IMG/VR virus record: IMGVR_UViG_3300045988_008823
Location: 1 to 18,421 of that record
Direction: 5' to 3' (one strand)
From: a virus
Length of the DNA stretch: 18,421 bases
Positions within the stretch are counted from its first letter, which is position 1, and each line of letters begins with the position of its first letter. The notes beneath the pieces are model-generated. The model was not told the DNA's origin and searched no databases. It saw nothing but the letters and a program-made list of their open reading frames with translations. The position numbers and the translations under genes are program-made. Shown here one piece after another: positions 36 through 18,421 of this stretch.

Positions 36-169
36 AAAAGGAGGGGAGGGGTCCCTGGAGCTAGTCTTTTTCCACGGCTGCTCTGTTGTGTATTTCGTTC
101 TTGTTCTCTGCCCTGTGTTTTTTATTATCGTTCCTGCCCTGCCGTTGTATATCTCCTTTGTTGTCTTCT

Positions 170-197
170 ATTTTACCTACTTTGGTTTCATTGTCAA
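170..197 (-). promoter_or_regulatory. Outward-facing consensus promoter in the left ITR
   Basis: The minus strand reads TTGACA (197..192), 16-nt spacer, TAAAAT (175..170). The predicted start near 163 transcribes toward the genome terminus at 36. Confidence 0.4.
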
Positions 198-244
198 TCC
201 GGCGTGTCGTTTTGTGTTATATTTTAAGTGCGTATTTTGTGTTT

Positions 245-274
245 TTGCTAAAAACGTTTTACTTTGTCGATAAT
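245..274 (+). promoter_or_regulatory. Candidate inward sigma-70-type promoter inside the ITR (mirrored on - strand at 18148..18177)
   Basis: TTGCTA (245..250), 18-nt spacer, GATAAT (269..274), pointing toward the first gene. Confidence 0.35.
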
Positions 275-332
275 CTAAGCGCGTAGTTTTCTCATTGTTT
301 TTTGCGTCTCTCGGTGTGTTGTTTTTGGTGTG

Positions 333-341
333 TGGTATGAT
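333..341 (+). promoter_or_regulatory. Extended -10 box TGGTATGAT at the inner edge of the ITR (mirrored on - strand at 18081..18089)
   Basis: TGnTATGAT lies about 20 nt upstream of the SD GGGAGG (359..364) and would drive the first gene at each genome end. Confidence 0.4.
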
Positions 342-373
342 GAAAGTATCAACCACGAGGGAGGTAAATTGAT

Positions 374-604
374 ATGTGGTATTTTGTTATAACCAATGAT
401 GGGTTTCAGGTGTTTGAAGTTCTATCTGATTGTGTAAAGCCGAGCGGTATGTTTCTTACGGTGTCCCTGAAATCCTCGTTAGACGGGGTGCTGTCTTATG
501 TCAGGCATATGTACGTCGGAATGAACGTAGACGTGAATATCGATAATGCCACGTTTGATATGGATAGTACTATGGTTGGCATGGTTAAGGTGGTGCTAGT
601 ATAA
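374..604 (+). CDS. Hypothetical early protein (76 aa)
   Basis: The ATG lies 9 nt after GGGAGG (359..364), which is inside the ITR. The stop overlaps the next ATG (ATAATG at 601..606). No family recognised. Confidence 0.6.
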   Translation: MWYFVITNDGFQVFEVLSDCVKPSGMFLTVSLKSSLDGVLSYVRHMYVGMNVDVNIDNATFDMDSTMVGMVKVVLV

Positions 605-771
605 TGGTTGGCATGATTGTTGCCGTTTGCATACTTTCAGCGTTGTTTCTTACAGCGGCTGCTATGGTGTTTTGTGAACTGCCGCGTGATTGGCGTGATG
701 CTTTTTGTTTTTTGGTCATGCTTGCTGTAAGCGTGACTGTTGTTTTTGTTTTCGCAATGAAAGGTTTTTGA
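604..771 (+). CDS. Small two-helix membrane protein (55 aa), absent from the supplied ORF track
   Basis: My own translation is MVGMIVAVCILSALFLTAAAMVFCELPRDWRDAFCFLVMLAVSVTVVFVFAMKGF, two hydrophobic stretches around a charged loop. The ATG overlaps the upstream TAA, and the stop TGA (769..771) is followed 1 nt later by the next ATG, so the ORFs are tightly packed. Confidence 0.45.
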   Translation: MVGMIVAVCILSALFLTAAAMVFCELPRDWRDAFCFLVMLAVSVTVVFVFAMKGF

Positions 772-772
772 A

Positions 773-1018
773 ATGGCTAATACTGATATAATGATTGCTA
801 TATTTCCTTCGCTGTTTGAGGGAGGTAATGTGGGATTGTGGTATTGTCCTCACCGTCATCTGTATGAGTTGCGGTATGCCGTCCGATTCCGTACTTTAGC
901 TGGCCCTTGCAATGCGACTGCCTTGTGTGCGTACGACGCTGGGGACGGCAGTCAAGTGGTTGACCTTATGCTTGATGCTGTTGACATTGCCCGCACGCCA
1001 CTCTTAGATAGGGATTAG
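773..1018 (+). CDS. Hypothetical early protein (81 aa)
   Basis: GAAAGG lies 8 nt upstream and the ORF is tightly packed with its neighbours. No family recognised. Confidence 0.5.
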   Translation: MANTDIMIAIFPSLFEGGNVGLWYCPHRHLYELRYAVRFRTLAGPCNATALCAYDAGDGSQVVDLMLDAVDIARTPLLDRD

Positions 1019-3635: not shown

Positions 3636-5096
3636 ATGCGAGAGCGTCGAACGGCGGCAACAGACGGCGCGGCACTATTGACGGATGACGGCATAACGCC
3701 ATTTACGGCGAACGCCATTATTCGGCTGACCATGCTTGACCACCATACGCGCGTATGGTGCGCCCATGGGTGGCAGGATATCAAGCCTATAGCGGCCGAG
3801 CTGTTGAGGCGCCTCCCCTTGCAATCGAACCCGGCCAAGGATGGAGTTTGGGGCACTTTCAATATTCGTGGCCATTTCTACAGCTTCCGCGTGCGCATGG
3901 GCGGTATCACCGTGGATTTTCTGGACGTGCGCAACATTACACGCGATGACGGATTGAATGTCTCACGTGAAACATTCGGTGGCGCTGATGACTTGGAAAC
4001 CACGTGGAACATCGCGCAGGAATGCGACGCCCTGAATCTCAAGGGCACTACAATCGCGTCTATGGCGATGGGGGATTATATCGGGGGGGACTATGCCGGA
4101 TTCAAACGTCATTTCCCGCCATTGGATAAAGCGGAATATCATCGGATACGCCCCGCATACTATGGGGCGATAGTGTACAGCAGGCCGGGCGAATACCGGG
4201 ATTGCAAGAGTTGGGATGTGAACAGTCTTTATCCGAGTATCATGCGCGACTTTGCTATGCCGGTAGGCTCCCCTATATGGTACGAGGGAGAATATCATTA
4301 TGATGCCGATTACCCGCTGCATATCGATGTTATCACGTTCGATGCGCGCCTGAAGCTAGGGAAAACGGCGACGCTCACAAACATCCTACCAGTATGGGGG
4401 TACGAGGGCGAACGTTTGGATAGTACGCTAGGCGTCGTCACCATGCCCGTCACCAATGTAGACTGGCAGACGCTTGTGGAAAACTATGATGTCCATGTGT
4501 GGGATTATGTTGGCGGCTGGAAATTCCGTAAATCGCATGGACTCTATTACAACTACGTTGATAAATGGTTTCACGTGAAACAAACCGCAACCGGTGAACG
4601 TCGTCAGATGGCGAAATTATTACTGAACTCGTTGGTGGGAAAATTCGGGGCCTCGCTTTATCGGCCTATGCTGCACCCGAAGCCTTCTGGTGATGGCGGC
4701 GTGGATTTTACTGTGGACAAGCCCGAGTTAACAAACTCACTCGCATGGCTACCGACTGCGGCATATGTCAACGCCTACGGTCGGCAAATATTGTCCAGCG
4801 CGATGAACGCGAACGCCGGTCGTGTGCTCTACGCCGACACGGACGGCATGATATTGGACGGGTCAGATGCGCCCGCAGATATCGAAACGGACGATAAGAA
4901 ACTGGGCGCGTGGAAAAACGACCATACCTATGAAAAACTTCGCATTCTCGGTAATCGCAAATACTGCGGTGTGGAAACGGACGGTGGTACGGTGATGCGG
5001 TTGAGTGGCGTGCATCGGGCAGCGCCTATCCCCTACAACGATTTTCTACCGAGGTCACGCCATGTAAATGATGACGGATGTTTTTTTGTGCTATAA
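3636..5096 (+). CDS. Protein-primed family-B DNA polymerase (486 aa)
   Basis: SD AAGGATGG upstream. Motif A is WDVNSLYPS (4215..4238; phi29 DVNSLYPA), motif B is KLLLNSLVGKFG (4614..4649; phi29 KLMLNSLYGKFA) and motif C is LYADTDG (4830..4847; phi29 YCDTDS). It also has a YxGA pre-motif (PAYYGAIVY) and a KxY motif (NRKYCG). Confidence 0.95.
   Translation: MRERRTAATDGAALLTDDGITPFTANAIIRLTMLDHHTRVWCAHGWQDIKPIAAELLRRLPLQSNPAKDGVWGTFNIRGHFYSFRVRMGGITVDFLDVRNITRDDGLNVSRETFGGADDLETTWNIAQECDALNLKGTTIASMAMGDYIGGDYAGFKRHFPPLDKAEYHRIRPAYYGAIVYSRPGEYRDCKSWDVNSLYPSIMRDFAMPVGSPIWYEGEYHYDADYPLHIDVITFDARLKLGKTATLTNILPVWGYEGERLDSTLGVVTMPVTNVDWQTLVENYDVHVWDYVGGWKFRKSHGLYYNYVDKWFHVKQTATGERRQMAKLLLNSLVGKFGASLYRPMLHPKPSGDGGVDFTVDKPELTNSLAWLPTAAYVNAYGRQILSSAMNANAGRVLYADTDGMILDGSDAPADIETDDKKLGAWKNDHTYEKLRILGNRKYCGVETDGGTVMRLSGVHRAAPIPYNDFLPRSRHVNDDGCFFVL
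3960..3973. repeat. Near-perfect (13/14) copy of the palindrome: GTCTCACGTGAAAC
   Basis: Lies inside the polymerase gene (codons VSRET). A half-site-like GAAACCACGTGGAAC lies at 3996..4010. Confidence 0.6.
4568..4581. repeat. Perfect 14-bp palindrome GTTTCACGTGAAAC, copy 1
   Basis: Lies inside the polymerase gene (codons W-F-H-V-K-Q), in a different reading frame relative to the motif from the 3960 and 7611 copies. Confidence 0.9.
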
Positions 5097-5097
5097 T
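5089..5097 (+). promoter_or_regulatory. Extended -10 box TGCTATAAT overlapping the polymerase stop codon
   Basis: Perfect TGnTATAAT. The predicted start near 5104 is at the 5' edge of the structured intergenic region. Confidence 0.45.
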
Positions 5098-5103
5098 GAC
5101 CGG

Positions 5104-5262
5104 TAGCGGGGTGTGCGTCCCAAGCCGATTCAATGGCCCGACCGGCAGGCAATCGGTAAGGCGATTCGGTCGGATGTAGACGTGCGTAGCCAACGCCCAT
5201 TGACGGCGAGGGAACCCGCACAGCCTAGCAATCCGGCACGGCAGCGTGATTGCTGCCGTGCC
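5104..5262 (+). ncRNA. Candidate structured RNA of about 160 nt (pRNA candidate or late-operon leader)
   Basis: A 186-nt gap with no credible ORF. Helices seen by eye are 5109..5117 with 5217..5225, 5138..5144 with 5167..5173, 5151..5155 with 5162..5166 (loop GTAAGG) and 5184..5187 with 5193..5196. A terminal perfect 11-bp hairpin pairs 5235..5245 with 5252..5262. Confidence 0.35.
5235..5262 (+). terminator. GC-rich perfect hairpin without a U-tract (terminator, RNA 3' end or stabiliser)
   Basis: GGCACGGCAGC, loop GTGATT, GCTGCCGTGCC, followed by ATCTACC and the scaffold-gene SD. Confidence 0.5.
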
Positions 5263-5282
5263 ATCTACCTTAAGAGGTGATT

Positions 5283-5624
5283 ATGGACGACACCGAAAAC
5301 GACGACAAGCCGGACACCACGCCCAATACCGAATCGGACGTGACCGCCGACGACAATACGCCGAACCCAGAGCCTGAAACGCAGGACGATAACGAACCTG
5401 AAGACGCAGGCGACGATAAGAACGCCGACATGGCCGACCGGTTGAGCGCATTGGAGGCGACAGTGGCGGAACTGTCCAAAACCGTCGAAGCGATGCGCGA
5501 CGCCGCCGCCGACCACGTGCTGAACGATGGCCCAGATGACAATGCGACGCCGGAATCGGCTGAAATGACCGACGACGACTACAACGGCACCTACAGCACT
5601 TTCGATGACTTGTACGAAGACTGA
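5283..5624 (+). CDS. Putative scaffolding protein (113 aa), acidic with a helical segment
   Basis: ATG 5283 follows AAGAGGTGA; the track start at 5277 is a GTG inside that SD. The protein is highly acidic, with a heptad-like helix ADRLSALEATVAELSKTVEAMRDAAA. It sits immediately upstream of the capsid gene, as phi29 gp7 does. Confidence 0.55.
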   Translation: MDDTENDDKPDTTPNTESDVTADDNTPNPEPETQDDNEPEDAGDDKNADMADRLSALEATVAELSKTVEAMRDAAADHVLNDGPDDNATPESAEMTDDDYNGTYSTFDDLYED

Positions 5625-5646
5625 CAATTAGGAAGGAATAACTATC

Positions 5647-7377
5647 ATGGCAACTACTCCAGTGGTGACGCCGAAGCAGCAGCTTCGCCCGCTCACCGAA
5701 TTTAACAACGCTCAGATTCTTAACATGATTCGCAACGAGGCGTCGCCAGAGTACCAGAGGCGAATGCCCTCGGCCACTCAGATGAATATGGATAGGCAGA
5801 TGGCTACGCTTATGTCGTCTACCCAGCTTAAGAACGAGTTTTATTCGGCGTTAGTGAACCGTATCGGCGGCACTTACGTGAACACGTGGCGTTGGAACAA
5901 TCCGCTGAGCGTTTTTCAGCGCGCATCGCAGGCGTATGGTGACACGTGGCAGGAAATCGCCGTAGGTATGCCGCTTGCGCAGGTCTACGACCCTAATGCG
6001 GAATATCTCGGCGCGGATAACTTCCGCAAGTGGAAAATCGACGTGGATTCGCTCTATCATCGTTTGGACTTCGCCCACTGGTATCCCGCGACTACGGACG
6101 ACAAGACGCTTCAGCGCGCTTTCACGTCCGAAAACGGTCTAGCCTCGCTCACTTCCCAGATTCTCACCTCTTGTTATAACGCGGCTGAAGTGGACTTGTT
6201 CGAGGCCTTGTGTCATCAATTCGTTGAGTATGCGAAACTTGGCGGATATTGGCGTGTCCATATGGACAACGACCTGAACAACATGGGCAGTTCGGAGACG
6301 GACGCCCGCGACATGTTGCGCCAGATTCGCGCATGGGCTGACACGCTTAAATTCGTTTCCACCAAGTACAATGCCCGTCACATGCCGACCTTCGCCCGCC
6401 CGGACGAACTTGTATTGTTCTGTTCCCCCGAAGTCAAGTCGGCGCTTGACGTGCAGGGCCTTGCCACGGTATTTCAGCGTACGGACGCCGAGCCGACCAT
6501 CGACCGGATTATCGTCATTCCGCAGGACAGATTCGGCATGAATGGCGTGCAAGCCATCTTGACCACTGACAAGTTTCTGATTGACATTCCGGTCATTAAC
6601 GAGATGACTCAGCAGACCAATCCGGTCAACATCAATTCAGTTAACCATTATCTGCATGTCCAGCACATCATCTCAGTGTCCGGCTTCGCGCCCGCCGTGA
6701 TGTTCTGGACTGGCGCGGCGTCTACTTCCAACGTGGTGGCCCCTACCGGCACGCAGGCTCAGGCACCGACGTTCCAGCTCAAGCTTGCCATGTATGGCGG
6801 TGGCTCGGAAACTCCGAGCGACGTGGCGCGTGGCGGCGCGGTGCAGGTCACTGCTGATACGACGATTACTAATGACGGCACTGCCACGTTCCGTTCGGAT
6901 GCGGTTGAATATCGCATTGGCGACACCGCTAAGTCGAAGAGCGATTATACGTATATCTCGCCTACCGGCGTGCTTGTGGTCGGCCTTGACGAACCGAACA
7001 CCATCATCCCGATTACCGCAACCGCCTTGTACACGAACCCGGCGATGCCGGAAGTGCCGGGCACCGTGTCGGCGGCTCTGGACGTGCCAGTGGTCGGTGA
7101 CGGTGTTATCGGATTCAACCCGTCCATCATCGCGTCTATTGCCGTGACAGTCCCGAACGTGACTGTAGGACATCCGGCGCAGGCTACTGCCGTGGCGACA
7201 ATGATTGACGGACGTACCGCCGATGTGACCGCGCAGGCCGCGTGGACGTCCAGCACTCCGGCGAATGCCACCGCATCCGAATCGGGCGTGGTGACTGGCA
7301 TCAAGGAGGGCGCCTCTGACATCACCGCCACGCTGTTCGGCGTGTCTGGAAAAAAGAGCGTGACAGTGACCGCGTGA
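5647..7377 (+). CDS. Major capsid protein, phi29 gp8-like, with C-terminal Big_2 Ig-like domain (576 aa)
   Basis: Hand alignment to phi29 gp8: NMIRNEASPEYQRRMP with NAIRNSQGDNFKSYVP, NEFYSALVNRIG with NDFITSLVDRIG, YNAAEVDLFE with YNSAEVDEYE, and NHYLHVQHIISVSGFAPAVMF with NYYLHVWQVLSASRFANAVAF. The C-terminus (about 7129..7374) has the Big_2 signature ...AWTSSTPANATASESGVVTGIKEGASDITATLFGVSGKKSVTVTA. Confidence 0.93.
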   Translation: MATTPVVTPKQQLRPLTEFNNAQILNMIRNEASPEYQRRMPSATQMNMDRQMATLMSSTQLKNEFYSALVNRIGGTYVNTWRWNNPLSVFQRASQAYGDTWQEIAVGMPLAQVYDPNAEYLGADNFRKWKIDVDSLYHRLDFAHWYPATTDDKTLQRAFTSENGLASLTSQILTSCYNAAEVDLFEALCHQFVEYAKLGGYWRVHMDNDLNNMGSSETDARDMLRQIRAWADTLKFVSTKYNARHMPTFARPDELVLFCSPEVKSALDVQGLATVFQRTDAEPTIDRIIVIPQDRFGMNGVQAILTTDKFLIDIPVINEMTQQTNPVNINSVNHYLHVQHIISVSGFAPAVMFWTGAASTSNVVAPTGTQAQAPTFQLKLAMYGGGSETPSDVARGGAVQVTADTTITNDGTATFRSDAVEYRIGDTAKSKSDYTYISPTGVLVVGLDEPNTIIPITATALYTNPAMPEVPGTVSAALDVPVVGDGVIGFNPSIIASIAVTVPNVTVGHPAQATAVATMIDGRTADVTAQAAWTSSTPANATASESGVVTGIKEGASDITATLFGVSGKKSVTVTA

Positions 7378-7383
7378 TATAAT
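7375..7383 (+). promoter_or_regulatory. Extended -10 box TGATATAAT overlapping the capsid gene stop
   Basis: Perfect TGnTATAAT. The 12-mer GTGATATAATGG is repeated exactly at 9812..9823. Confidence 0.3.
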
Positions 7384-7430
7384 GGGAGGGTAGCCGGTTG
7401 GCTACTCTCTCTCACGGTGTGATGCAGGAC

Positions 7431-7467
7431 AAGGCCCGGAACAATCCACGTGATTGCTCCGGGCCTT
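7431..7467 (+). terminator. Intrinsic terminator or attenuator after the capsid gene
   Basis: AAGGCCCGGA (7431..7440) pairs with TCCGGGCCTT (7458..7467). An inner CAATC/GATTG extension closes a CACGT loop. The hairpin is followed by TGTCAT. Confidence 0.6.
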
Positions 7468-7487
7468 TGTCATACCGGAGGATAACA

Positions 7488-9815
7488 ATGATTGACGACG
7501 CGAACCCTTATGTGGAATCTAATTTTTCGTGGGCGGAGTGGACACCCAACACCACACTGAAACTCTGCCGCGTACCGTGGGATGCTTCATACCGCGATAT
7601 TGTGCGCTTTGTTTCACGTGAAACACAGCAAGAATGGTTTGACAAACTGGACGGCGTGGAATGCCGTCCGGCCACCATGCATATTTTCAACGCGCCAGTC
7701 CGCGTCGAACTGCCGTTTAACGAGGCGTCGAACTGGAATTATCTAGTGGCCTACAATGACTACCCCGGTCTGGAGGGGCCACGCGCATGGTATTACTTTA
7801 TCCAGCGCGTTGAATACGTCAACGCCCATTGCACGCAACTAGTCTTGATGCTGGACGTATGGCAAAGTTTCCAGCATGACGTCACATTCGGCAGCTGCTA
7901 TGTGATGCGCGGCCATATCGGCGTCGCCAACGAACACCAATGGGATGATTACGGGCGCACATATCTCGCTTTGCCTGAAGGGCTGGATACCGGAAGCGAG
8001 ATGGTCACGACGTCACAGGAATACCAGAGCATCATTGAGGGCCAACATTATGATATAGACGGTGGCAGTGTTGATTGGGTTGATTACGGCCTGATTGTGG
8101 TCAGCACCACGAATCTCTCTGACGACCCCGGCAACACTTCTGCCCCAAAATTGACTACCGCAACCGGGGCAATCTTCGAGCAGGAGACGGACGGCTGTTC
8201 CGTCTACTATTGCGAGAACAGGATGGCGTACGTCGCCAACATAATGGCTCTTGGCACGCTGTTCCCTTGGGTAACGCAAGGCATTTGCGCCGTGTACATG
8301 GTGCCAAAAATCCCACGGGATTACATAGACCGATACGGTGTTAAAGTCACGAAAATCTATGGGCAGCCGGTGTCTGAGGAATATGGCAGCATTTATGCTT
8401 TCAATTCGTCTCTCGATTCGGACTTACGCTATGAAGACGTTATGGCTATTCCGAACTTTCGTCGTAAATTCAACATCCCCGCCCGCTATCGGAACCTACG
8501 CAAACTCTATTGCTACCCGTTTTGCGTTATTGAATGCAGCTGTTTGAACGGCACGGTTATCACCTATCGACCTGAAGACATCCAATCCGACATGCTCACT
8601 ATCCGCGAAACCTACACTTACGCGCCGTCCGGCGCAAGGATTAACTTCTATGTCCCCGGATACAATGAGGCAGGAGCTGGCACTACCGTGCCGCTGCGCA
8701 TCAACGGCAAGGATATGGGACTCCCGATAGACGGCGGCGAAATGCTCAATGCAAGTTTTGGCATCACCAATCTACCCCACTTTTCCGTGGTCAACAATGG
8801 CGGCGCGTTGGCGATGGCAAACAGCGCGTACACCCGCGCCTACGCGCAGGAATCGGCCCAATGGACTAGGCAGAAGGCTTTGACCTCGGCAAACGTGGCC
8901 AACTCCAATGCTGCATTGCAGCGTGAATACGCCACACGGCAAACCAATTGGGCAAATGAGAACAGGACGGCAACCAATGCCATCACGGCAAACTCGCTGA
9001 ACCAGTCTCTTGCCATCGGGCAGAATCAAACCAGTCAGATGGCTAATCTCCAAGTAGAGCAGAACATCAAGAGCAATAATCTCAATGGTATGGCCGGTAT
9101 TATTGGCGGTGGACTGAACGCCATCGCGTCACATAGTCCGTTAGGTGCGGTGAACGCGGTTGGCGGCGCGTTCCTCGGCTCCGCGCGAACGGATATCGCC
9201 AATTACGGCATTAATTCGTCGGCTGCTGTCTCCAATTCCACGGCGGCGGCGAGTACGGCCAATCAGCTTGCCACCAATGCAGCGGCCGCATCGCAGGCCA
9301 ACGCCTACGCGAGCGGCGCGACCGGACTGAGCAACCAGCTCAACGCCCTTACCTCGCAAGCGAATTACGGACTGGCCTCGTACGCGGCGCAAGGCGACTA
9401 CCAGAACGCCATCGCCGGAATCAACGCCCAAGTGCAGCAGATGCAACTGACTCCGCCAACCACTTCAGGAGCGCTCGGCGGTGACATGTTCAATTTGTCG
9501 AACGGCATTATGGGCGTGTTGGTGCGGTTCAAAACGTGTGCACCGAGCGCGTTGAGGGCGGCAGGTGAATACATGCTACGCTATGGATATTTTGTCCAAC
9601 GATTCGTAACGCCACCCACTTCGCTGGAATGCATGGACAAATTCACGTTCTGGCAGATGCAGGAAGCGTATGTGCGGGGCACGTTGCCGGAAGAATACCG
9701 ACTGACCATCAAGGGCATGTTTGAACGTGGCGTGACGGTCTGGAACAAGCCTGAATACATCGGCGTGACCGACTGGGCGGACAATGAGCCACTGCCGGGT
9801 ATTGGCTATGAGTGA
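7488..9815 (+). CDS. Tail knob (distal tail tube) protein, phi29 gp9-like (775 aa)
   Basis: ATG 7488 lies 7 nt after GGAGG; the track's TTG start at 7398 would read through the terminator hairpin. Hand alignment to phi29 gp9: VPWDASYRDIVRFVSRETQQEWFDKL with [26 protein letters not shown], and WYYFIQRVEYVNAHCTQLVLMLDVWQSFQHD with [32 protein letters not shown]. Confidence 0.85.
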   Translation: MIDDANPYVESNFSWAEWTPNTTLKLCRVPWDASYRDIVRFVSRETQQEWFDKLDGVECRPATMHIFNAPVRVELPFNEASNWNYLVAYNDYPGLEGPRAWYYFIQRVEYVNAHCTQLVLMLDVWQSFQHDVTFGSCYVMRGHIGVANEHQWDDYGRTYLALPEGLDTGSEMVTTSQEYQSIIEGQHYDIDGGSVDWVDYGLIVVSTTNLSDDPGNTSAPKLTTATGAIFEQETDGCSVYYCENRMAYVANIMALGTLFPWVTQGICAVYMVPKIPRDYIDRYGVKVTKIYGQPVSEEYGSIYAFNSSLDSDLRYEDVMAIPNFRRKFNIPARYRNLRKLYCYPFCVIECSCLNGTVITYRPEDIQSDMLTIRETYTYAPSGARINFYVPGYNEAGAGTTVPLRINGKDMGLPIDGGEMLNASFGITNLPHFSVVNNGGALAMANSAYTRAYAQESAQWTRQKALTSANVANSNAALQREYATRQTNWANENRTATNAITANSLNQSLAIGQNQTSQMANLQVEQNIKSNNLNGMAGIIGGGLNAIASHSPLGAVNAVGGAFLGSARTDIANYGINSSAAVSNSTAAASTANQLATNAAAASQANAYASGATGLSNQLNALTSQANYGLASYAAQGDYQNAIAGINAQVQQMQLTPPTTSGALGGDMFNLSNGIMGVLVRFKTCAPSALRAAGEYMLRYGYFVQRFVTPPTSLECMDKFTFWQMQEAYVRGTLPEEYRLTIKGMFERGVTVWNKPEYIGVTDWADNEPLPGIGYE
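7611..7624. repeat. Perfect 14-bp palindrome GTTTCACGTGAAAC, copy 2
   Basis: Lies inside the tail-knob gene (codons F-V-S-R-E-T), 123 nt after its start. Confidence 0.9.
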
Positions 9816-9821
9816 TATAAT
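9813..9821 (+). promoter_or_regulatory. Extended -10 box TGATATAAT overlapping the tail-knob stop, 6 nt upstream of the portal ATG
   Basis: Perfect TGnTATAAT, then GGCGAT, then ATG 9828. This spacing fits a leaderless start, and there is no SD upstream of 9828. Confidence 0.4.
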
Positions 9822-9827
9822 GGCGAT

Positions 9828-10778
9828 ATGAGTAGGTCTAAAAAGAATCGAGTTGGCGGCGCGTCGCACCCGCGCGGCAATTACGCAAAAGCACGCGCAG
9901 CCACGCTTGATGACATGTATCTTCACTTGCTAATGGAACTCGCACTGAACCGTTTCAGTTGGCGCGGATTACCACCCACCGTAGACGAACGTTGGCTGGA
10001 AATATGTCTGTGCGAATACGGGTGTGCGCTGTTTTTCGAGGACAAGCGTATCGGCAGGTTCCTTGCAACGCAGGCTGGTTATCAAGGCAGGTTGAATGTG
10101 TACAACAATCCGACATGCTTCGAACCGGTAGGCGTCAACTACCATTATAGGCAGCTCAAGGCCGGTTCGGAATGCATTCCAATTTGGGACAATAGAATGC
10201 GCGTCGGATTCAAGCCGACATTATGGCAGTACGCGCGACGCCTTGCCGATATCGACAAGGCGTATGACGTGAACTTGGAGAGCCTGAAACTGCCAACCAT
10301 AATCACAGCCGACCCCCGCACCAAACTCACCGTGCAGAACATGCTTCAACAGCGGCAGGACGGTCAGGATTATATCATCGGATACGATTCGCTTGACCCC
10401 GGCAGCATGTTCCAGCCGTGGCCGAACACTACGCCTTATTTGCTGGACAAGTTCATCCAGCAAAAAGCACAGGTGACTAACGAAGTGCTGGGGTATCTCG
10501 GCATTCAGTCGTCCGGCACGGAAAAAAAGGAACGGCTGATATCCGACGAAGTGGCGCAGGCCAACGAGAAAGTAGACGTGTTCCGGTTGAGCTTCCTTAA
10601 GGCGCGGCAGACGGCGGCGACCGAGATTAACCGATTGTGGCCGCAGCTTAATGTCTGGGTGGAATATGCGGACGCGCAAAGCTCCGGCGTGCCCAACGCG
10701 CTTGACTCTAGCGCTTCGGGCACGACGGACATTGACATGCCGGCATCATATGACGCGGGTATCGGAGGTGTATTGTGA
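9828..10778 (+). CDS. Portal (upper collar / connector) protein, phi29 gp10-like (316 aa)
   Basis: Hand alignment to phi29 gp10: LELALNRFSWRGLPPTVDERWLEICLCEYGCALFFED with [37 protein letters not shown], and GIQSSGTEKKERLISDEVAQANEKVD with [26 protein letters not shown]. The basic N-terminus MSRSKKNR resembles MARKRSN. Confidence 0.92.
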   Translation: MSRSKKNRVGGASHPRGNYAKARAATLDDMYLHLLMELALNRFSWRGLPPTVDERWLEICLCEYGCALFFEDKRIGRFLATQAGYQGRLNVYNNPTCFEPVGVNYHYRQLKAGSECIPIWDNRMRVGFKPTLWQYARRLADIDKAYDVNLESLKLPTIITADPRTKLTVQNMLQQRQDGQDYIIGYDSLDPGSMFQPWPNTTPYLLDKFIQQKAQVTNEVLGYLGIQSSGTEKKERLISDEVAQANEKVDVFRLSFLKARQTAATEINRLWPQLNVWVEYADAQSSGVPNALDSSASGTTDIDMPASYDAGIGGVL

Positions 10779-11569
10779 CACAGGATTTTAGCGCCTACGC
10801 GATGGAAACCCCCGGAGAGTACACCGAAACGCTTGGTAATCTTATTGCATTCGGATATGATGACGACGACAAGCTACATCTTAGCGCCGACTATTATCCG
10901 ATTTACAACGAATCTCACCGCGCGGAGTTGAACGAGAAAATCGTTCGCCATTACGCGCTCAGGGAGATTGGTCAGGAAACCGCCCAACAGTTCATTTTTT
11001 ACTTAGGTGTGACGATGGCGGAAATCATGCCCTATTTTAATGAGCGCTACCGGACACTGGACATGGAATATAATCCGTTGGATTCTATGGACATGACCAC
11101 GGACAGCGAGAGCGGCAGCGAGTCCCAGTCGTCCGGCAAAGCGTCCAGCACGCAGGACTCAACCAGCTCCAGCAACAGCAAGTCGGATAATTCCAGCGCC
11201 ACCACGTCCAGAAGCTTCGACAGCGACGTGCCTCAGACCGGCGTTGTTGGCGACTTCGCACGCTACGCCTCCCACGCGAACGAATCACAGGCGGACAGCT
11301 CCGGCACCGCATCCAGTTCGCAGGATTCAGCCAGTCATACCACTGCGCAAAGCGCCACCGACTACCAACACGATTCAAGCAATGCCAAGGGCAAGAGCCA
11401 CGTGAACGGGCGCAGTCAGAGCGCCATGAGTCTGATTCAGGAGTACCGTCAGGCGATTATCAACGTAGACATGGAAGTCGTGCGGAGCCTTGAACCGTGT
11501 TTCATGCAGGTATGGGGTTCGTATGATACAATATTCACTGACTGCCATAACTATGAAGAATGGGAGTAA
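10775..11569 (+). CDS. Lower collar protein, phi29 gp11-like (264 aa), with a Ser-rich low-complexity insert
   Basis: GTG 10775 lies 7 nt after GGAGGT and overlaps the portal stop (GTGA). It sits directly after the portal gene. The segment IVRHYALREIGQETAQQFIFYLGVTMAEIMPYFNERY matches my recollection of the REIG-ET/EIMPYYN pattern of lower collar proteins. Confidence 0.65.
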   Translation: MTQDFSAYAMETPGEYTETLGNLIAFGYDDDDKLHLSADYYPIYNESHRAELNEKIVRHYALREIGQETAQQFIFYLGVTMAEIMPYFNERYRTLDMEYNPLDSMDMTTDSESGSESQSSGKASSTQDSTSSSNSKSDNSSATTSRSFDSDVPQTGVVGDFARYASHANESQADSSGTASSSQDSASHTTAQSATDYQHDSSNAKGKSHVNGRSQSAMSLIQEYRQAIINVDMEVVRSLEPCFMQVWGSYDTIFTDCHNYEEWE

Positions 11570-11571
11570 TT

Positions 11572-12207
11572 ATGAGTGCCATTAATGCACCGGTTCCACA
11601 GCAACGCTTATTCAACGGGGTGCCTACATCTGTTCCGTTCACTTATCGTGACGGGTTGACGACTTTGCAGTTGATTGAATGTCTGCGCCATAATCTCGAT
11701 ATCATCCAACGCGAACTAAGCAAGGTCGAAGAAGCTATGGCCGACCTCGCAGCGTCTACAGACAAGGCCCTTGCGGACTCCGTGGCGCAGATTAATCAGG
11801 ACATGGCTGCGTTGCGTGCAGAATTGCTCTCGCTGATTCATGAGATGGAGCAGCAGGGTGCGGCGACATCGCCGGTCTACGGGATTACGCAACCGCTCGG
11901 GGAAGTGTTGGGCGGCATGTATGACAATTCCCGCAATCATGGGCTTTTCTGGGGCGACTACGATAATATGCAGCTCACCGCCCAAGAATACGATGGGCTT
12001 ACCATTAATGCCCGCGAATACGACTTGAAGGCAACCGCCGTCGATAATTGTATCCCCGGCGACTTCCCCGGACGCTCTCAATTCCCCTACGGCAAGAGCA
12101 TACCCGAGAATCCACCCGCCGACATGTCGTTTATCACGCAATCGGAAGCCGATGCACGATATGTCGGGCGCAATCCAACCGCAGACAATTTCGATAAGAA
12201 AGGATAA
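11572..12207 (+). CDS. Tail appendage/fibre-associated structural protein (211 aa)
   Basis: ATG 11572 lies 5 nt after GGGAG. It has a coiled-coil segment (LSKVEEAMADLAASTDKALADSVAQINQDMAALRAELLSL) and the duplicated TAQEYDGLTINAREYDL motif common in Gram-positive phage tail proteins. The function is inferred from position. Confidence 0.4.
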   Translation: MSAINAPVPQQRLFNGVPTSVPFTYRDGLTTLQLIECLRHNLDIIQRELSKVEEAMADLAASTDKALADSVAQINQDMAALRAELLSLIHEMEQQGAATSPVYGITQPLGEVLGGMYDNSRNHGLFWGDYDNMQLTAQEYDGLTINAREYDLKATAVDNCIPGDFPGRSQFPYGKSIPENPPADMSFITQSEADARYVGRNPTADNFDKKG

Positions 12208-12212
12208 CTACC

Positions 12213-12632
12213 ATGACCGCATCCAACAAGACAGCAAATTACGAACTCAGCCAGTTCATCGGCTCCGACCGACCCACGTGGCTCGGAGATTACAACAGCG
12301 ACATGTCGAAAATCGATACGCAGCTGAAGCAGAACGCGGACGACATCGCGTCAGCAGCCGCCGGTGGCCTCACTTCGGTAAACCATACCGCCGACCTTAC
12401 CGGTAACGGTACGTCCGGCTCCCCGCTGGGCGTGGCGAGCACCATCGCCAAGAAAACCGACATCCCGGACGTGAGCGGATTCGCCACCACCTCCGCCCTC
12501 ACCTCAGGGCTTGCGGGCAAGGTCGATAAAACCGCCTCGCAGCCCGGCACGCTCGGATTGACGGCGACCGAACTTGACTCGATGTACAAGGACGCGAGCG
12601 GCATCGTCCGTGTTGGCAATGCCGAAGCCTAG
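12213..12632 (+). CDS. Short tail fibre protein (139 aa) sharing its N-terminal module with the next gene
   Basis: SD AAAGGA upstream. The N-terminus TANYELSQFIGSDRPTWLGDYNSDMSKIDTQL is paralogous to TGHYNLPTFGDNPNDRPSWRGDFTNAMTKIDNQM of the 12649 gene. The rest is Gly/Ser/Thr-rich and fibre-like. Confidence 0.55.
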   Translation: MTASNKTANYELSQFIGSDRPTWLGDYNSDMSKIDTQLKQNADDIASAAAGGLTSVNHTADLTGNGTSGSPLGVASTIAKKTDIPDVSGFATTSALTSGLAGKVDKTASQPGTLGLTATELDSMYKDASGIVRVGNAEA

Positions 12633-12648
12633 AAAAAGGAAAATAACA

Positions 12649-14091
12649 ATGTCTACCACACAGCATACCGGACACTACAATCTGCCGACATTTGGCGACA
12701 ATCCAAACGACCGCCCGTCATGGCGCGGCGATTTTACGAACGCGATGACGAAAATTGACAATCAGATGTACACCAACGCCACCAACATCACCACGGCGAC
12801 GGCAGCGGCGAACAACGCAACCACGGCGGCGGGCGAGGCTAAGACGGCGGCTGACAACGCCACAAGCCTCGCGCAGGCCAATAAGAACGATATTGCCGAC
12901 TTGGACGGCTATTTCGGTAAGCTCGGCGTCACGTCGGAATCAACCGCGCAGCAGCTTATGAATACCATCAACGGCAAGGCGGAAAATACCGAACTGACCT
13001 CGCTTAAGAGCACGGTATCTTCATTGTCCAGCACGGTTAATACCAAGGCGAACACCTCCGACGTGTACACCAAGGGTCAGGCCGATACGACGTTTACCAA
13101 GCAGGGCGGATATTCCGGCACCGCGCAGCAGTTGAACCAGCGTATTCAAGCGCTGGAAGCGACGCCGGAAGACCAGCTGCCTATCTGCCTCTGTATCGGA
13201 GACAGCTACGCCAATTCGTCCAGCACCGCCGACCCGGACGGCACGGACGCAACCAAATGGCCCACGCAGTTGAGAAACATCATCGGCAACGATTATCGAG
13301 TAAAAAACTACTCGGTCACTGGAGCTGGATTCAATGTGTCAGGCAATACGTTCACCGACCAAATTAACAACGCTTACAGTTCGTCGGCCATCGATAATGA
13401 CAATGTGGCGATTATCATTATCGGAGGCGGTCGAAACGATATCGGCACCACACCGCAGATGAAATCGTATGCAGACGCGACATTCTCCAATGCGCGCGCC
13501 AAATTCCCCAAGGCTCGTATCATCTCCGTACCTATGCTCTGGCACAACGTCGGCATGGATATGTACGGCCGACAGAAAGCTGCGGGTATCGCGGAAGCGG
13601 CTGCAAAAAACGGCGTGGAAAACGTTGACTGGGCTTGGACGTGGAATATTGGCAACGACTCCAATTTCCCCAGCGGCGACATTCACCCCAACGCCAACGG
13701 GTCGAAGGTTATCGCGTCCTATATGGCCTCCGCCGTTCGAGGCACTTATACCGGACGCTATGAAGCAGCTACTCTAGCGGCCCCAAGTGGTAACGTATAC
13801 TCCAATATCGTGGCATCTGGTGGCATGATTTTCGCTACACTTTGGGGAGAAGACCCATCTACCAACGCGGAACTGAAGGCCGGTATTACGTTCCCGAAGT
13901 GGGCTAGGTCTGCGAATGGTTCCTCTCCCAACATCCTCAGGGCGTGGGGCGCGGGCCTTACCAACTCCGGTTCCGCCATAAGCGGCTGGCTGTTAACTGA
14001 CACGAACTTGTCAGACGGCGCACCCAGAATTAGCTACTTCGGTAATACCGCTGGTGGTAACAATGGCTGTTTCGTGTGCTACCCGTGGTAA
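12649..14091 (+). CDS. Tail fibre/spike with SGNH (GDSL) esterase domain (480 aa)
   Basis: ATG 12649 follows AAAAAGGAAA; the track start at 12574 overlaps the previous gene. It has the shared N-terminal docking module and an Asn/Thr/Ala-rich coiled stalk. The SGNH blocks are CIGDSYANSS (about 13198), VTGAGF, IIGGGRND (about 13423) and GDIHPN (about 13678). Confidence 0.75.
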   Translation: MSTTQHTGHYNLPTFGDNPNDRPSWRGDFTNAMTKIDNQMYTNATNITTATAAANNATTAAGEAKTAADNATSLAQANKNDIADLDGYFGKLGVTSESTAQQLMNTINGKAENTELTSLKSTVSSLSSTVNTKANTSDVYTKGQADTTFTKQGGYSGTAQQLNQRIQALEATPEDQLPICLCIGDSYANSSSTADPDGTDATKWPTQLRNIIGNDYRVKNYSVTGAGFNVSGNTFTDQINNAYSSSAIDNDNVAIIIIGGGRNDIGTTPQMKSYADATFSNARAKFPKARIISVPMLWHNVGMDMYGRQKAAGIAEAAAKNGVENVDWAWTWNIGNDSNFPSGDIHPNANGSKVIASYMASAVRGTYTGRYEAATLAAPSGNVYSNIVASGGMIFATLWGEDPSTNAELKAGITFPKWARSANGSSPNILRAWGAGLTNSGSAISGWLLTDTNLSDGAPRISYFGNTAGGNNGCFVCYPW

Positions 14092-14093
14092 AC

Positions 14094-14107
14094 GTTTCAC
14101 GTGAAAC
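14094..14107. repeat. Perfect 14-bp palindrome GTTTCACGTGAAAC, copy 3 (intergenic)
   Basis: Starts 3 nt after the fibre-gene stop codon (14089..14091) and lies immediately upstream of the terminator hairpin at 14115..14143. Confidence 0.9.
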
Positions 14108-14114
14108 ATAACCT

Positions 14115-14143
14115 ATACCCCACGGCTTCAAGCCGTGGGGTAT
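14115..14143 (+). terminator. Intrinsic terminator after the fibre genes
   Basis: ATACCCCACGGC, loop TTCAA, GCCGTGGGGTAT (12 bp, perfect), followed by ACTATTATGT. Confidence 0.7.
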
Positions 14144-14153
14144 ACTATTATGT

Positions 14154-17751: not shown

Positions 17752-17788
17752 ATAAGTAAAGCCCCGCATGTCGCGGGGCTTTACTTAT
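17752..17788. terminator. Bidirectional intrinsic terminator between convergent genes
   Basis: ATAAGTAAAGCCCCGC, loop ATGTC, GCGGGGCTTTACTTAT (16 bp, perfect). The A/T-rich flanks give a U-tract in both directions. Confidence 0.85.
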
Positions 17789-18052: not shown

Positions 18053-18386
18053 ATTTACCTCCCTCGTGGTTGATACTTTCATCATACCACACACCAAAAA
18101 CAACACACCGAGAGACGCAAAAAACAATGAGAAAACTACGCGCTTAGATTATCGACAAAGTAAAACGTTTTTAGCAAAAACACAAAATACGCACTTAAAA
18201 TATAACACAAAACGACACGCCGGATTGACAATGAAACCAAAGTAGGTAAAATAGAAGACAACAAAGGAGATATACAACGGCAGGGCAGGAACGATAATAA
18301 AAAACACAGGGCAGAGAACAAGAACGAAATACACAACAGAGCAGCCGTGGAAAAAGACTAGCTCCAGGGACCCCTCCCCTCCTTTT
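18053..18386. repeat. Right inverted terminal repeat (334 bp)
   Basis: Exact reverse complement of 36..369. Confidence 0.97.
18225..18252 (+). promoter_or_regulatory. Outward-facing consensus promoter in the right ITR
   Basis: TTGACA (18225..18230), 16-nt spacer ATGAAACCAAAGTAGG, TAAAAT (18247..18252). The predicted start near 18259 runs off the end at 18386. Confidence 0.4.
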
Positions 18387-18421
18387 AGATCGGAAGAGCA
18401 CACGTCTGAACTCCAGTCACT
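18387..18421. other. Illumina TruSeq-type sequencing adapter (technical, not biological)
   Basis: AGATCGGAAGAGCACACGTCTGAACTCCAGTCACT, the standard adapter read-through sequence, directly abutting the genome end ...CCTCCTTTT. Confidence 0.97.

Follow-up and report, generated by a model that had tools for sequence, protein, structure and literature searches.

A palindrome repeated across the genome of a phi29-like phage is, by its sequence, the canonical core of the chromosomal centromere parS, tGTTtCACGTGAAACa, at which ParB/Spo0J nucleates. The window analysed (IMG/VR record IMGVR_UViG_3300045988_008823, 18,421 nucleotides) contains four such sites. We consider it likely that these are chromosomal-type parS sites on a virulent, protein-primed Bifidobacterium phage, upon which host ParB would load for positioning or inheritance of the phage genome.

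Four parS-type sites on a phi29-like genome

The 14-bp palindrome GTTTCACGTGAAAC occurs in three exact copies (4568-4581, 7611-7624 and 14094-14107) and one 13/14 copy, GTCTCACGTGAAAC, at 3960-3973. No further site with two or fewer mismatches to the 14-mer was found elsewhere in the 18.4-kb window. The expected number of 14-mer sites was 0.09, and none of 200 dinucleotide-preserving shuffles reached four, confirming the claim of the initial annotation that the copies are not due to chance. Its additional CACGTG "half-sites" did not withstand counting: 15 were present against 7.75 ± 2.67 expected, and subtraction of the four full sites leaves 11, which is the chance level.

The initial annotation had recognised no known bacterial regulator box in the motif, which is in fact a textbook parS site. 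The published parS of M. smegmatis is GTTTCACGTGAAAC itself, that of C. glutamicum and B. subtilis is TGTTNCACGTGAAACA, and the general consensus is TGTTTCACGTGAAACA. Compared with the 16-bp consensus TGTTNCACGTGAAACA, the window contains one 16/16 match (7610-7625) and three 15/16 matches, against 0.65 expected with three or fewer mismatches; the 14-bp core is perfect in three of the four. No additional match was found in the window at that threshold. Two earlier proposals are supported, namely a dimeric DNA-binding protein as the likely ligand and, among several roles then listed, a segregation anchor.

Two of the sites, parS-1 (TGTCTCACGTGAAACA, 3959..3974, 15/16) and parS-2 (GGTTTCACGTGAAACA, 4567..4582, 15/16 with a perfect 14-bp core), lie inside the DNA polymerase gene (3636..5096, plus strand; PHROG 1907, 6.6e-54; Pfam DNA_pol_B_2, 1.2e-33), where they are read as N-V-S-R-E-T and W-F-H-V-K-Q, respectively. 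The KLLLNSL motif of the polymerase follows just downstream of parS-2. The perfect site, parS-3 (TGTTTCACGTGAAACA, 7610..7625, 16/16), lies in the phi29 gp9-like tail-knob gene (7488..9815, plus strand; PHROG 2248, 6e-80; Pfam phi29_gp9_C), where it takes up codons 42-46 (V-S-R-E-T). This gene most likely starts at the ATG at 7488, which has a GGAGG ribosome-binding site; the start is accordingly reassigned from the TTG at 7398. The reading frames originally assigned to the motif were correct (KWFHVKQ in the polymerase, RFVSRET in the tail gene and LNVSRET for the 13/14 polymerase copy).

The fourth site, parS-4 (CGTTTCACGTGAAACA, 14093..14108, 15/16), is intergenic. Its 14-bp copy begins 3 nt past the TAA of the fibre/GDSL-esterase gene (12574-14091) and 6 nt ahead of a strong, terminator-like hairpin with a 14-bp stem (14114..14144, plus strand), which lies directly 3' of the site and is kept in relatives; the region 14086-14150 folds to -31.2 kcal/mol (z = -6.7). 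A second hairpin, between the MCP and tail genes (7431..7467, plus strand; -29.1 kcal/mol, z = -7.1), carries CACGT in its loop. Direct reading of its sequence gives six mismatches to parS, so it is not a site in the window; its position is where a sister sublineage has a full parS within a hairpin. Overall, three of the four sites lie deep inside genes, and a sequence scan revealed no promoter-like hexamers at any of them.

The window holds the complete 18.4-kb genome of a protein-primed podovirus of the phi29-like type. It encodes a family-B polymerase, a phi29-type SSB, a gp9-like tail knob, a connector, a lower collar and a packaging ATPase. The linear genome is bounded by inverted terminal repeats (36..369 and 18053-18386) that are 100% complementary, outside which bases 1-35 and 18387-18421 are sequencing adapter; the genome ends presumably carry terminal protein. 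PHROG and Pfam searches of the phage ORFs gave no match to an integrase, a repressor or ParA, and the phage appears strictly lytic. From sequence relationships we infer that the host genus is Bifidobacterium. The nearest cultured phages all infect this genus. The lysin shares 64-66% identity with its counterparts in B. dentium phages and 50% with a locus in a B. phasiani genome, and B. pseudocatenulatum phage BP1 has homologues of four early ORFs at 59-82% identity. The polymerase is less than 30% identical to those of Bacillus phi29-like phages. ParABS has been reported for all Actinobacteria, and 12 of 12 OMM12 gut genomes, one Bifidobacterium among them, possess ParABS homologues together with consensus parS sites.

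Conservation of the sites among relatives

The initial annotation had proposed looking for the motif at homologous positions in close relatives, where it proved to be kept and not scrambled. Approximately 80 metagenomic relatives (79-90% nucleotide identity in the polymerase gene) hold sites at the same two polymerase positions. At the parS-1 position the consensus of 65 relatives is a perfect GTTTCACGTGAAAC, with the exact sequence present in 43 of them. The parS-2 sequence is exact in 30 of 65 (46%), while a further 15 carry GTTCCACGTGAAAC, a B. subtilis-type TGTTCCACGTGAAACA variant permitted by the published consensus TGTTNCACGTGAAACA. At least three sites with no more than one mismatch were present in 43 of 54 near-full relatives. 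The motif is thus not strictly invariant; a few genomes (L045 and L056) have two-mismatch versions only, and a higher-GC sublineage (L040, L045 and L080) possesses symmetric variant sites such as GTCTCACGTGAGAC.

The third site was found within the tail gene in 31 genomes, within an intergenic hairpin in 19, and in both places in none. In the sublineage with the hairpin site, the tail protein has a different N-terminus and the site sits at the apex of the MCP-tail hairpin, some 200 nt upstream. The fourth site is facultative. Of 54 near-full genomes, 13 have it with at most one mismatch, downstream of fibre genes that differ in their 3' ends; in other relatives it is decayed or deleted.

Synonymous variation, which had also been suggested as a check, was roughly half as great inside the motif as elsewhere. 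Third-codon-position entropy was 0.45 within the motif versus 0.77 outside it (Mann-Whitney p = 0.010), and entropy at 4-fold sites was 0.46 versus 0.92 (p = 0.014); the test is a modest one, with p≈0.01 over 10 positions and phylogenetic non-independence ignored. Coding copies are read in two different frames, and intergenic copies occur in two kinds of surroundings. Together, the shared positions in some 80 relatives, the re-placed third site and the lowered synonymous entropy indicate that the motif is maintained by selection on DNA independently of coding context, as had been proposed.

Beyond this clade, no parS with two or fewer mismatches was found in BP1, BD811P or BadAztec, the closest cultured Bifidobacterium podophages, and in a second phi29-like group the site was present in 12 of 80 genomes. 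The trait is thus dispensable and lineage-specific. Other distant phi29-like contigs contain two to six near-perfect parS sites each, and enrichment of this 16-mer extends to unrelated phi29-like lineages, whose early genes are unrelated too, as well as to phi29 itself.

Alternative explanations for the motif

As its leading idea, the initial annotation had suggested that the motif serves a phage regulator as an operator or timing switch, in the manner of phi29 p4 and p6. More broadly, a dimeric phage regulator or a host transcription factor might time early and late transcription from these sites, as a roadblock or an internal promoter switch, with the likeness to parS being coincidental. The motif is indeed a perfect dyad, and terminator-like hairpins at the boundaries of gene blocks adjoin or contain two of the sites (between MCP and tail in the sister lineage, between fibre and next gene here). 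Several small early ORFs lack a known function, and two ORFs (5113-5280 and 5277-5624) are clade-specific. No ParB, ParA or HTH Pfam domain was detected in any ORF (E ≤0.1 for early ORFs, ≤0.01 for the remainder), and it is possible that the phage encodes a small, unrecognisable DNA binder. However, every early ORF has a homologue in the parS-less phages BP1, BD811P or BadAztec, the variable left-end ORFs occur in only 9-39 of 53 relatives whereas the sites are near-universal, and the two clade-specific ORFs stand in scaffold position ahead of the capsid gene. The exact match to a universal 16-bp host site, the tolerated GTTCC variant that fits the published parS consensus, and the recurrence of the 16-mer in lineages with unrelated early genes also speak against a phage regulator, as do the mostly deep intragenic, non-promoter-like positions. 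With no promoter-like hexamers at the sites, and with early ORFs shared by phages that lack the motif, the motif does not belong with phage transcriptional operators, and we regard such a function as improbable.

Least probable, in our estimation, is that the motif is a by-product, whether of a CACGTG restriction/modification target, an RNA-processing hairpin, a recombination boundary or a coding coincidence (VSRET, FHVK). Its core is the palindrome CACGTG, site 4 marks a mosaic junction preceded by different fibre genes, and VSRET is encoded at two sites in the window and twice in an unrelated phage polymerase; yet CACGTG is at chance level outside the four sites and conservation spans all 14-16 bp. 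Sites 1 and 3 with their flanks fold to -9 kcal/mol, but the core RNA stem amounts to -3.7 kcal/mol and at site 2 is no better than shuffles, leaving the short RNA hairpin once suggested a weak candidate. Furthermore, the spread over two frames and two intergenic contexts, with the motif re-placed where its coding context was lost, is difficult to reconcile with a by-product, and the homologous polymerase and tail proteins of parS-less relatives do without it. The initial annotation is partly supported: the non-random recurrence, DNA-level selection, likely dimeric ligand and segregation anchor find support, while the operator lead, the unrecognised box and the half-sites do not.

A somewhat better, though still unlikely, candidate is that phage parS binds host ParB in order to titrate it. 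Hundreds of replicating genomes, each with three or four sites, might strip ParB from the origin region, and the resulting disturbance of chromosome segregation, SMC loading, ParA/DnaA control or division would benefit the phage. The evidence from motif identity and conservation applies equally here. The sites are multi-copy and spread along the genome instead of clustered, the phage looks strictly lytic by the absence of integrase, repressor or ParA matches, and parB mutants are listed in a review table with over-replication and altered division. Conversely, in phi29, the sole case studied, the documented role is segregation of the phage genome into the prespore. Additionally, parB is non-essential in the Gram-positive species of the review table, which calls the pay-off of titration into question, and close relatives without parS are viable.

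A probable host-type centromere on a virulent phage

In phi29 we found TGTTTCACGTGGAACA, a perfect parS of B. subtilis type, four times, at 10445, 15903, 17243 and 18760, together with one weaker site. This count agrees with the five parS sites reported for phi29, which are used through Spo0J for spore entrapment according to the summary in PMC2731898 of Meijer et al. 2005. Like the present phage, phi29 is virulent, protein-primed and approximately 18-19 kb in length, with four to five host-consensus parS copies that are mostly intragenic, one beside a terminator; neither phage encodes ParB, and here four host-consensus sites occur with no phage ParB or ParA domain. The sites of the present phage, in contrast, lie in other genes (polymerase, tail and fibre-proximal) and are of independent origin. 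Moreover, phi29 has a Spo0A-box partner system and prespore delivery, whereas the inferred host here is an actinobacterium, Bifidobacterium, which does not sporulate. Spore entrapment and pairing with Spo0A boxes therefore cannot be the rationale, ParB-dependent prespore transport does not apply to this host genus, and the purpose must differ. Relative to phi29, the arrangement is a variant in function and not a copy.

The chromosomal ParABS centromeres of Actinobacteria and Firmicutes have the identical sequence in several dispersed, often intragenic copies, as on the phage, but the phage sites belong to a linear viral genome of 18 kb instead of lying close to a chromosomal oriC, and no parAB operon adjoins them. 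The plasmid prophages P1 and N15 use centromere repeats for active partition. Elements of that type are temperate and encode their own ParA and ParB with a private parS, whereas this phage has no ParA/ParB domain and copies the host site; its sites, moreover, are dispersed over 10 kb, unlike a self-encoded partition cassette. Active partition through centromere repeats is also described for extrachromosomal mycobacteriophages (PMC7157519). Co-opted host boxes (Spo0A in phi29, CtrA in alphaproteobacterial phages, and LexA) are likewise host-protein sites on phage DNA, and the idea of "lytic deferment" holds that such sites couple the phage cycle to the host state. Those boxes are promoter-associated, however, while parS is the loading site of a CTP-dependent sliding clamp and is here mostly intragenic.

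We propose that host ParB loads on the phage DNA, probably so that the genome is positioned or inherited while lysis is deferred. ParB dimers are predicted to nucleate at the 16-bp palindromes and then, with CTP bound, to spread as sliding clamps along the 18-kb linear genome. Since only blocked DNA ends keep ParB-CTP clamps from running off, the protein-capped ends become relevant, and the terminal protein may hinder run-off. The complex could then plug the genome into host ParA/ParB, and possibly SMC or polar DivIVA, such that an infecting or slowly replicating genome would be positioned and passed to both daughter cells; lysis would be postponed, and the infection would be of the carrier or pseudolysogenic type. 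In a host that forms no spores, this would correspond to the Spo0J-dependent delivery of phi29 into the prespore. ParB binding in Bifidobacterium, clamp retention by terminal protein and the biological pay-off are the steps that we infer.

The motif itself is already textbook; the interest lies in its setting, parS in a phi29-like phage clade of a non-sporulating host. A limited literature search, which is no proof of novelty, revealed reports of parS for phi29 and Nf but for no other phi29-like phage, and a 2024 review of these phages makes no mention of parS, Spo0J or ParB. Across some 80 diverged genomes, a clade of gut phages that look strictly lytic has retained three to four host centromere sites, one of which was re-created within an intergenic hairpin upon loss of the coding site. 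This raises the question of whether ParB-parS serves virulent phages for carrier-state inheritance, replication positioning or ParB titration. More tentatively, virulent protein-primed gut phages may have evolved the copying of host centromeres repeatedly and independently, in which case it would not be a device peculiar to phi29 and sporulation. Host ParB-CTP clamps on a linear genome capped by terminal protein would then, through ParA and perhaps SMC or DivIVA, give a "lytic" phage plasmid-like inheritance, with a non-lysogenic carrier state in Bifidobacterium. Such inheritance could partly account for the long-term gut persistence of these phages, and variant sites such as GTCTCACGTGAGAC would follow the specificity of the host ParB, so that phage parS could predict hosts. 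In uncultured phi29-like phages, parS also offers a simple marker, readable from sequence, of host-coupled behaviour, and possibly a signal for host prediction.

Repeated parS-like sites in the window

The palindrome GTTTCACGTGAAAC occurs exactly at positions 4568, 7611 and 14094 of the window, and a copy with one mismatch (GTCTCACGTGAAAC) lies at 3960. No further site was present in the window at up to two mismatches. Dinucleotide-preserving shuffles contained a mean of 0.09 sites and none of 200 reached four, in agreement with the initial annotation, which had listed three exact copies plus one 13/14 copy and considered the three exact ones to be beyond chance. The additional half-sites that it listed (4001, 7447 and 11399) did not survive: CACGTG was counted 15 times where 7.75 +/- 2.67 were expected, and the count falls to chance level when the four full sites are removed.

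The motif had also been described as unlike any known bacterial regulator box. This was incorrect, since comparison with the 16-bp parS consensus revealed a full 16/16 match at 7610-7625 and three matches of 15/16, with 0.65 expected at up to three mismatches. Judged by its sequence, GTTTCACGTGAAAC is the canonical core of parS, the chromosomal centromere site at which ParB/Spo0J nucleates. Nearly all of the matches listed for this string in the full-text literature concern ParB/parS, chromosome origins or chromosome organisation. A review table gives parS as GTTTCACGTGAAAC in M. smegmatis, TGTTNCACGTGAAACA in C. glutamicum and B. subtilis, AGTTTCACGTGAAACT in S. pneumoniae and TGTTTCACGTGAAACA in H. 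neptunium. The last is also the general consensus used by a gut-consortium study, in which ParABS homologues and 1-10 parS sites were found in 12/12 genomes, one of them a Bifidobacterium. We consider it likely that the window sites are ParB-type parS sequences that would be recognised by the host ParB.

Translation bore out the reading frames proposed for the coding copies. The exact polymerase copy reads K-W-F-H-V-K-Q and the tail-gene copy R-F-V-S-R-E-T, while the 13/14 polymerase copy reads L-N-V-S-R-E-T. One of the three frames holds a TGA, so the palindrome can be coded in just two, as VSRE(T) and FHVK, and the window uses both. The remaining copy lies between the stop of the ORF at 12574-14091 and a hairpin with a 14-bp stem.

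Conservation and placement in relatives

An IMG/VR scan revealed 137 close relatives, 80 of which were fetched for comparison. Their polymerase genes are 79-90% identical to that of the window at the nucleotide level, a divergence sufficient to be informative. In essentially all fetched relatives the two polymerase sites occupy the same positions, always 608 nt apart, and at least three sites with up to one mismatch are present in 43 of the 54 near-full genomes. The commonest variant at the second polymerase site is GTTCCACGTGAAAC, whose changed position is an N in the published parS consensus.

In 31 genomes the third site coincides with tail-gene codons for V-S-R-E-T, and in 19 others, all with a different tail-gene N-terminus, it is intergenic. 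Both placements were found together in no genome, and only two or three have neither. This alternative placement is the strongest argument for selection on the DNA; selection on the DNA or RNA had been proposed from the sequence alone. Additionally, third-position entropy at codons for conserved amino acids was 0.45 within the motif and 0.77 elsewhere (Mann-Whitney p = 0.010), with values of 0.46 and 0.92 at 4-fold sites (p = 0.014); the test is modest and ignores shared ancestry, but its direction agrees with the placement evidence. The fourth site is facultative: it adjoins a conserved hairpin, follows at least five different fibre-gene 3' ends, and is visibly decayed or deleted in some relatives.

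Where the third site is intergenic it forms the apex of a capsid-tail terminator-like hairpin (GGGAGT-GTTTCACGTGAAAC-ACTCCC, then a T-run), so that in this sister sublineage the centromere site and the terminator-like stem are the same DNA. The sublineage comprises loci L027, L034, L036-L039, L043, L051, L053-L055, L058-L063, L066, L068-L070, L072, L073, L078 and L079 (e.g. L054:6176-6210). The capsid-tail hairpin of the window (7431-7467) is different, with only CACGT in its loop.

Two further variations were observed at the first polymerase site. Three relatives of GC 0.56-0.59 (L040:1416, L045:3950 and L080:200) carry GTCTCACGTGAGAC, a symmetric double change that again gives a perfect palindrome; this could reflect a host ParB of shifted specificity, or plain decay. 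Around window positions 3955-3978 the clade consensus widens the palindrome to 22 bp (GAATGTTTCACGTGAAACATTC), exceeding the 16 bp known to be read by ParB, although the three extra pairs may be chance.

The phage genome, its probable host and the candidate binding partner

With a perfect inverted repeat at its ends (1-369 and 18053-18421), the window represents a phage genome that is linear and complete. The outer 35 nt at both ends (1-35 and 18387-18421) are the Illumina TruSeq adapter AGTGACTGGAGTTCAGACGTGTGCTCTTCCGATCT and its reverse complement, and this adapter is found, at 100% identity, at the ends of many unrelated phage records. Without it, the terminal repeat measures about 334 nt (36-369 and 18053-18386), far longer than the 6 nt of phi29. 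The adapter is contamination that also marks the physical ends of the genome, at about 36 and 18386. On both sides the repeat extends to the RBS of the first gene facing inward, giving the two end genes a common upstream region; its left arm is strongly T-rich on the + strand. Each repeat holds a strong promoter-like site (TTGACA-16-TAAAAT, 11/12; 170-197 on the - strand and 18225-18252 on the + strand) facing outward to the genome end, a position that recalls the phi29 pRNA promoter. A pRNA gene behind this site was not supported: the roughly 130-nt transcript shows no more structure than its shuffles do (z = -0.36), and comparison of the complete window with Rfam (E up to 1) returned no pRNA, just two sub-threshold chance matches.

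The gene content is phi29-like, with a phi29-type SSB, a 348-aa ORF in the terminal-protein position, a protein-primed family-B polymerase (3636-5096), a major capsid protein, a gp9-like tail knob (start most likely ATG 7488), upper and lower collar proteins, a GDSL-esterase fibre-like protein, an NlpC/P60-like protein, a packaging ATPase, a holin and an amidase. A hairpin with perfect 16-bp arms (ATAAGTAAAGCCCCGC / GCGGGGCTTTACTTAT; 17752-17788) separates the stop of the endolysin gene from the convergent gene at the right end, and is probably a bidirectional terminator like TD1 of phi29. Genomes of the phi29 family carry a terminal protein covalently bound at each 5' end, and we infer the same for the window from its polymerase type, the ORF in the terminal-protein position and the terminal repeats.

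Sequence comparison makes Bifidobacterium, a non-sporulating genus, the most likely host. The nearest cultured phages are all Bifidobacterium podophages (polymerase identity 35-38%); four early ORFs at the left end share 59-82% identity with B. pseudocatenulatum phage BP1, and the endolysin shares 64-66% with its counterparts in the B. dentium phages BD811P1 and BD811P2. The C-terminal half of the lysin was covered by one bacterial genome match only, from Bifidobacterium phasiani. A nucleotide search of deposited phages returned one 280-nt stretch, against BP1, the remaining matches being adapter at the window ends. This stretch of early genes (window 599-878, PQ571273 17662-17941) is 81% identical, similarity to BP1 elsewhere being at the protein level only, which suggests a recent exchange of left-end early genes. 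The ORFs of the BP1-like stretch are the most variably present within the clade (9-39 of 53 members).

A dimeric host DNA-binding protein had been among the ligands first suggested, and this appears right. Host ParB is the obvious candidate ligand, and all Actinobacteria are reported to possess ParABS. No ParB, ParA or other DNA-binding Pfam domain was detected in the window ORFs (E up to 0.1 for early ORFs, 0.01 for the rest), nor was there PHROG evidence for a phage ParB, ParA or HTH. Homologues of all the early ORFs occur in BP1, BD811P1/P2 or the BadAztec phages, five cultured Bifidobacterium podophages that lack parS at up to two mismatches. A phage-encoded partner is therefore unsupported. 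Furthermore, the parS sites are near-universal among the relatives, of which only 9-39 of 53 have the variable left-end ORFs, and the sole clade-specific ORFs (5113-5280 and 5277-5624) occupy the scaffold position ahead of the capsid gene.

Precedents and possible function

The motif itself is already known, and phi29 is the one studied case of host parS on a virulent phage of this type. According to Meijer et al. (2005), as cited in PMC2731898, phi29 carries five parS sites and uses Spo0J to bring its genome into the prespore. Scanning phi29 as a positive control recovered TGTTTCACGTGGAACA, which fits the B. subtilis consensus perfectly, at 10445, 15903, 17243 and 18760, and a weaker site at 11796. 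These are mostly intragenic with one at the gp16 terminator, an anatomy that agrees with the window's sites, mostly in genes and one terminator-adjacent. The host phylum differs, however, and the sporulation rationale is inapplicable to Bifidobacterium. As the window sites lie in other genes than those of phi29 and are missing from the nearest relatives, an independent origin is indicated. The literature searched contained no report of parS in Bifidobacterium phages or gut phi29-like phages, an absence that does not prove novelty, and a 2024 review of phi29-like phages mentions neither parS, Spo0J nor ParB.

The perfect 16-mer has many matches across IMG/VR. Of 80 loci examined, at least 14 belong to other phi29-like phages that are only distantly related (22-45% amino acid identity over aligned segments, GC 35-49%), some with 3-6 near-perfect sites. 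Distant phi29-like gut phages of GC 0.33-0.41 with 3-6 near-perfect sites include L220 (the same contig as L132), L283, L098, L150 and L155. Most relatives of these phages carry none: among those of L132, only 12 of 80 have any site, with 20 sites in 1.16 Mb and none in 40 shuffled genomes; this patchiness suggests repeated gain and loss. Universality among phi29-like phages was rejected, given these counts and the five parS-less cultured podophages. The trait is fixed in the clade of the window, and the nearest cultured relatives of this clade lack it. On sequence grounds, host-type parS looks to have been gained repeatedly in protein-primed podoviruses.

Other carriers were noted. An unrelated low-GC (0.38) phage with a 693-aa protein-primed-type family-B polymerase (L091, IMGVR_UViG_3300045988_035191, listed with L105) has four perfect 16-bp sites and two with one mismatch; two of the perfect sites lie in its polymerase gene, both read N-V-S-R-E-T, convergent with the window. 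Four viral loci that are not phi29-like (L106:2657-3444, L146:10535-11462, L158:240-961 and L108:7193-9597) hold 3-5 perfect sites each, clustered within about 0.7-2.4 kb, and encode large terminase and portal, or tape-measure and capsid proteins. Their layout looks like a real centromere array, possibly of plasmid-prophages or elements using chromosomal-type ParB.

Several other explanations fit the data poorly. An operator for a phage regulator, the basis of the regulatory switch initially proposed, is not supported in a genome whose early ORFs are shared with parS-less phages. As an RNA hairpin the core stem reaches -3.7 kcal/mol but at site 2 is no better than shuffles, and the extended stems are unlike between sites. 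Coding coincidence sits badly with a site that is coding in some genomes and intergenic in others. A restriction or methylation site and a recombination boundary likewise match poorly. 

Our preferred explanation is a role in segregation or positioning, the direction in which a minor suggestion of the initial annotation, a segregation anchor, had pointed. ParB dimers nucleate at parS, bind CTP, close as clamps and slide to flanking DNA; the clamps accumulate only where DNA ends are blocked, and otherwise run off. Since terminal protein would block the phage ends, host ParB loading at three or four sites could coat much of the capped 18-kb phage genome. The coated genome would then be coupled to ParA-driven segregation, possibly with SMC loading or polar anchoring. 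We regard the binding part of this explanation as probable. Its specific pay-off is more tentative: entrapment in a spore cannot be the benefit in a non-sporulating host, and the most economical alternative is that the phage genome would be positioned and inherited while lysis is delayed, as a carrier state. A close rival is titration, whereby replicating phage DNA would sequester ParB and derange host segregation or division. Although the sequence element is ordinary, its setting raises a testable question as to how 'lytic' gut phages persist.
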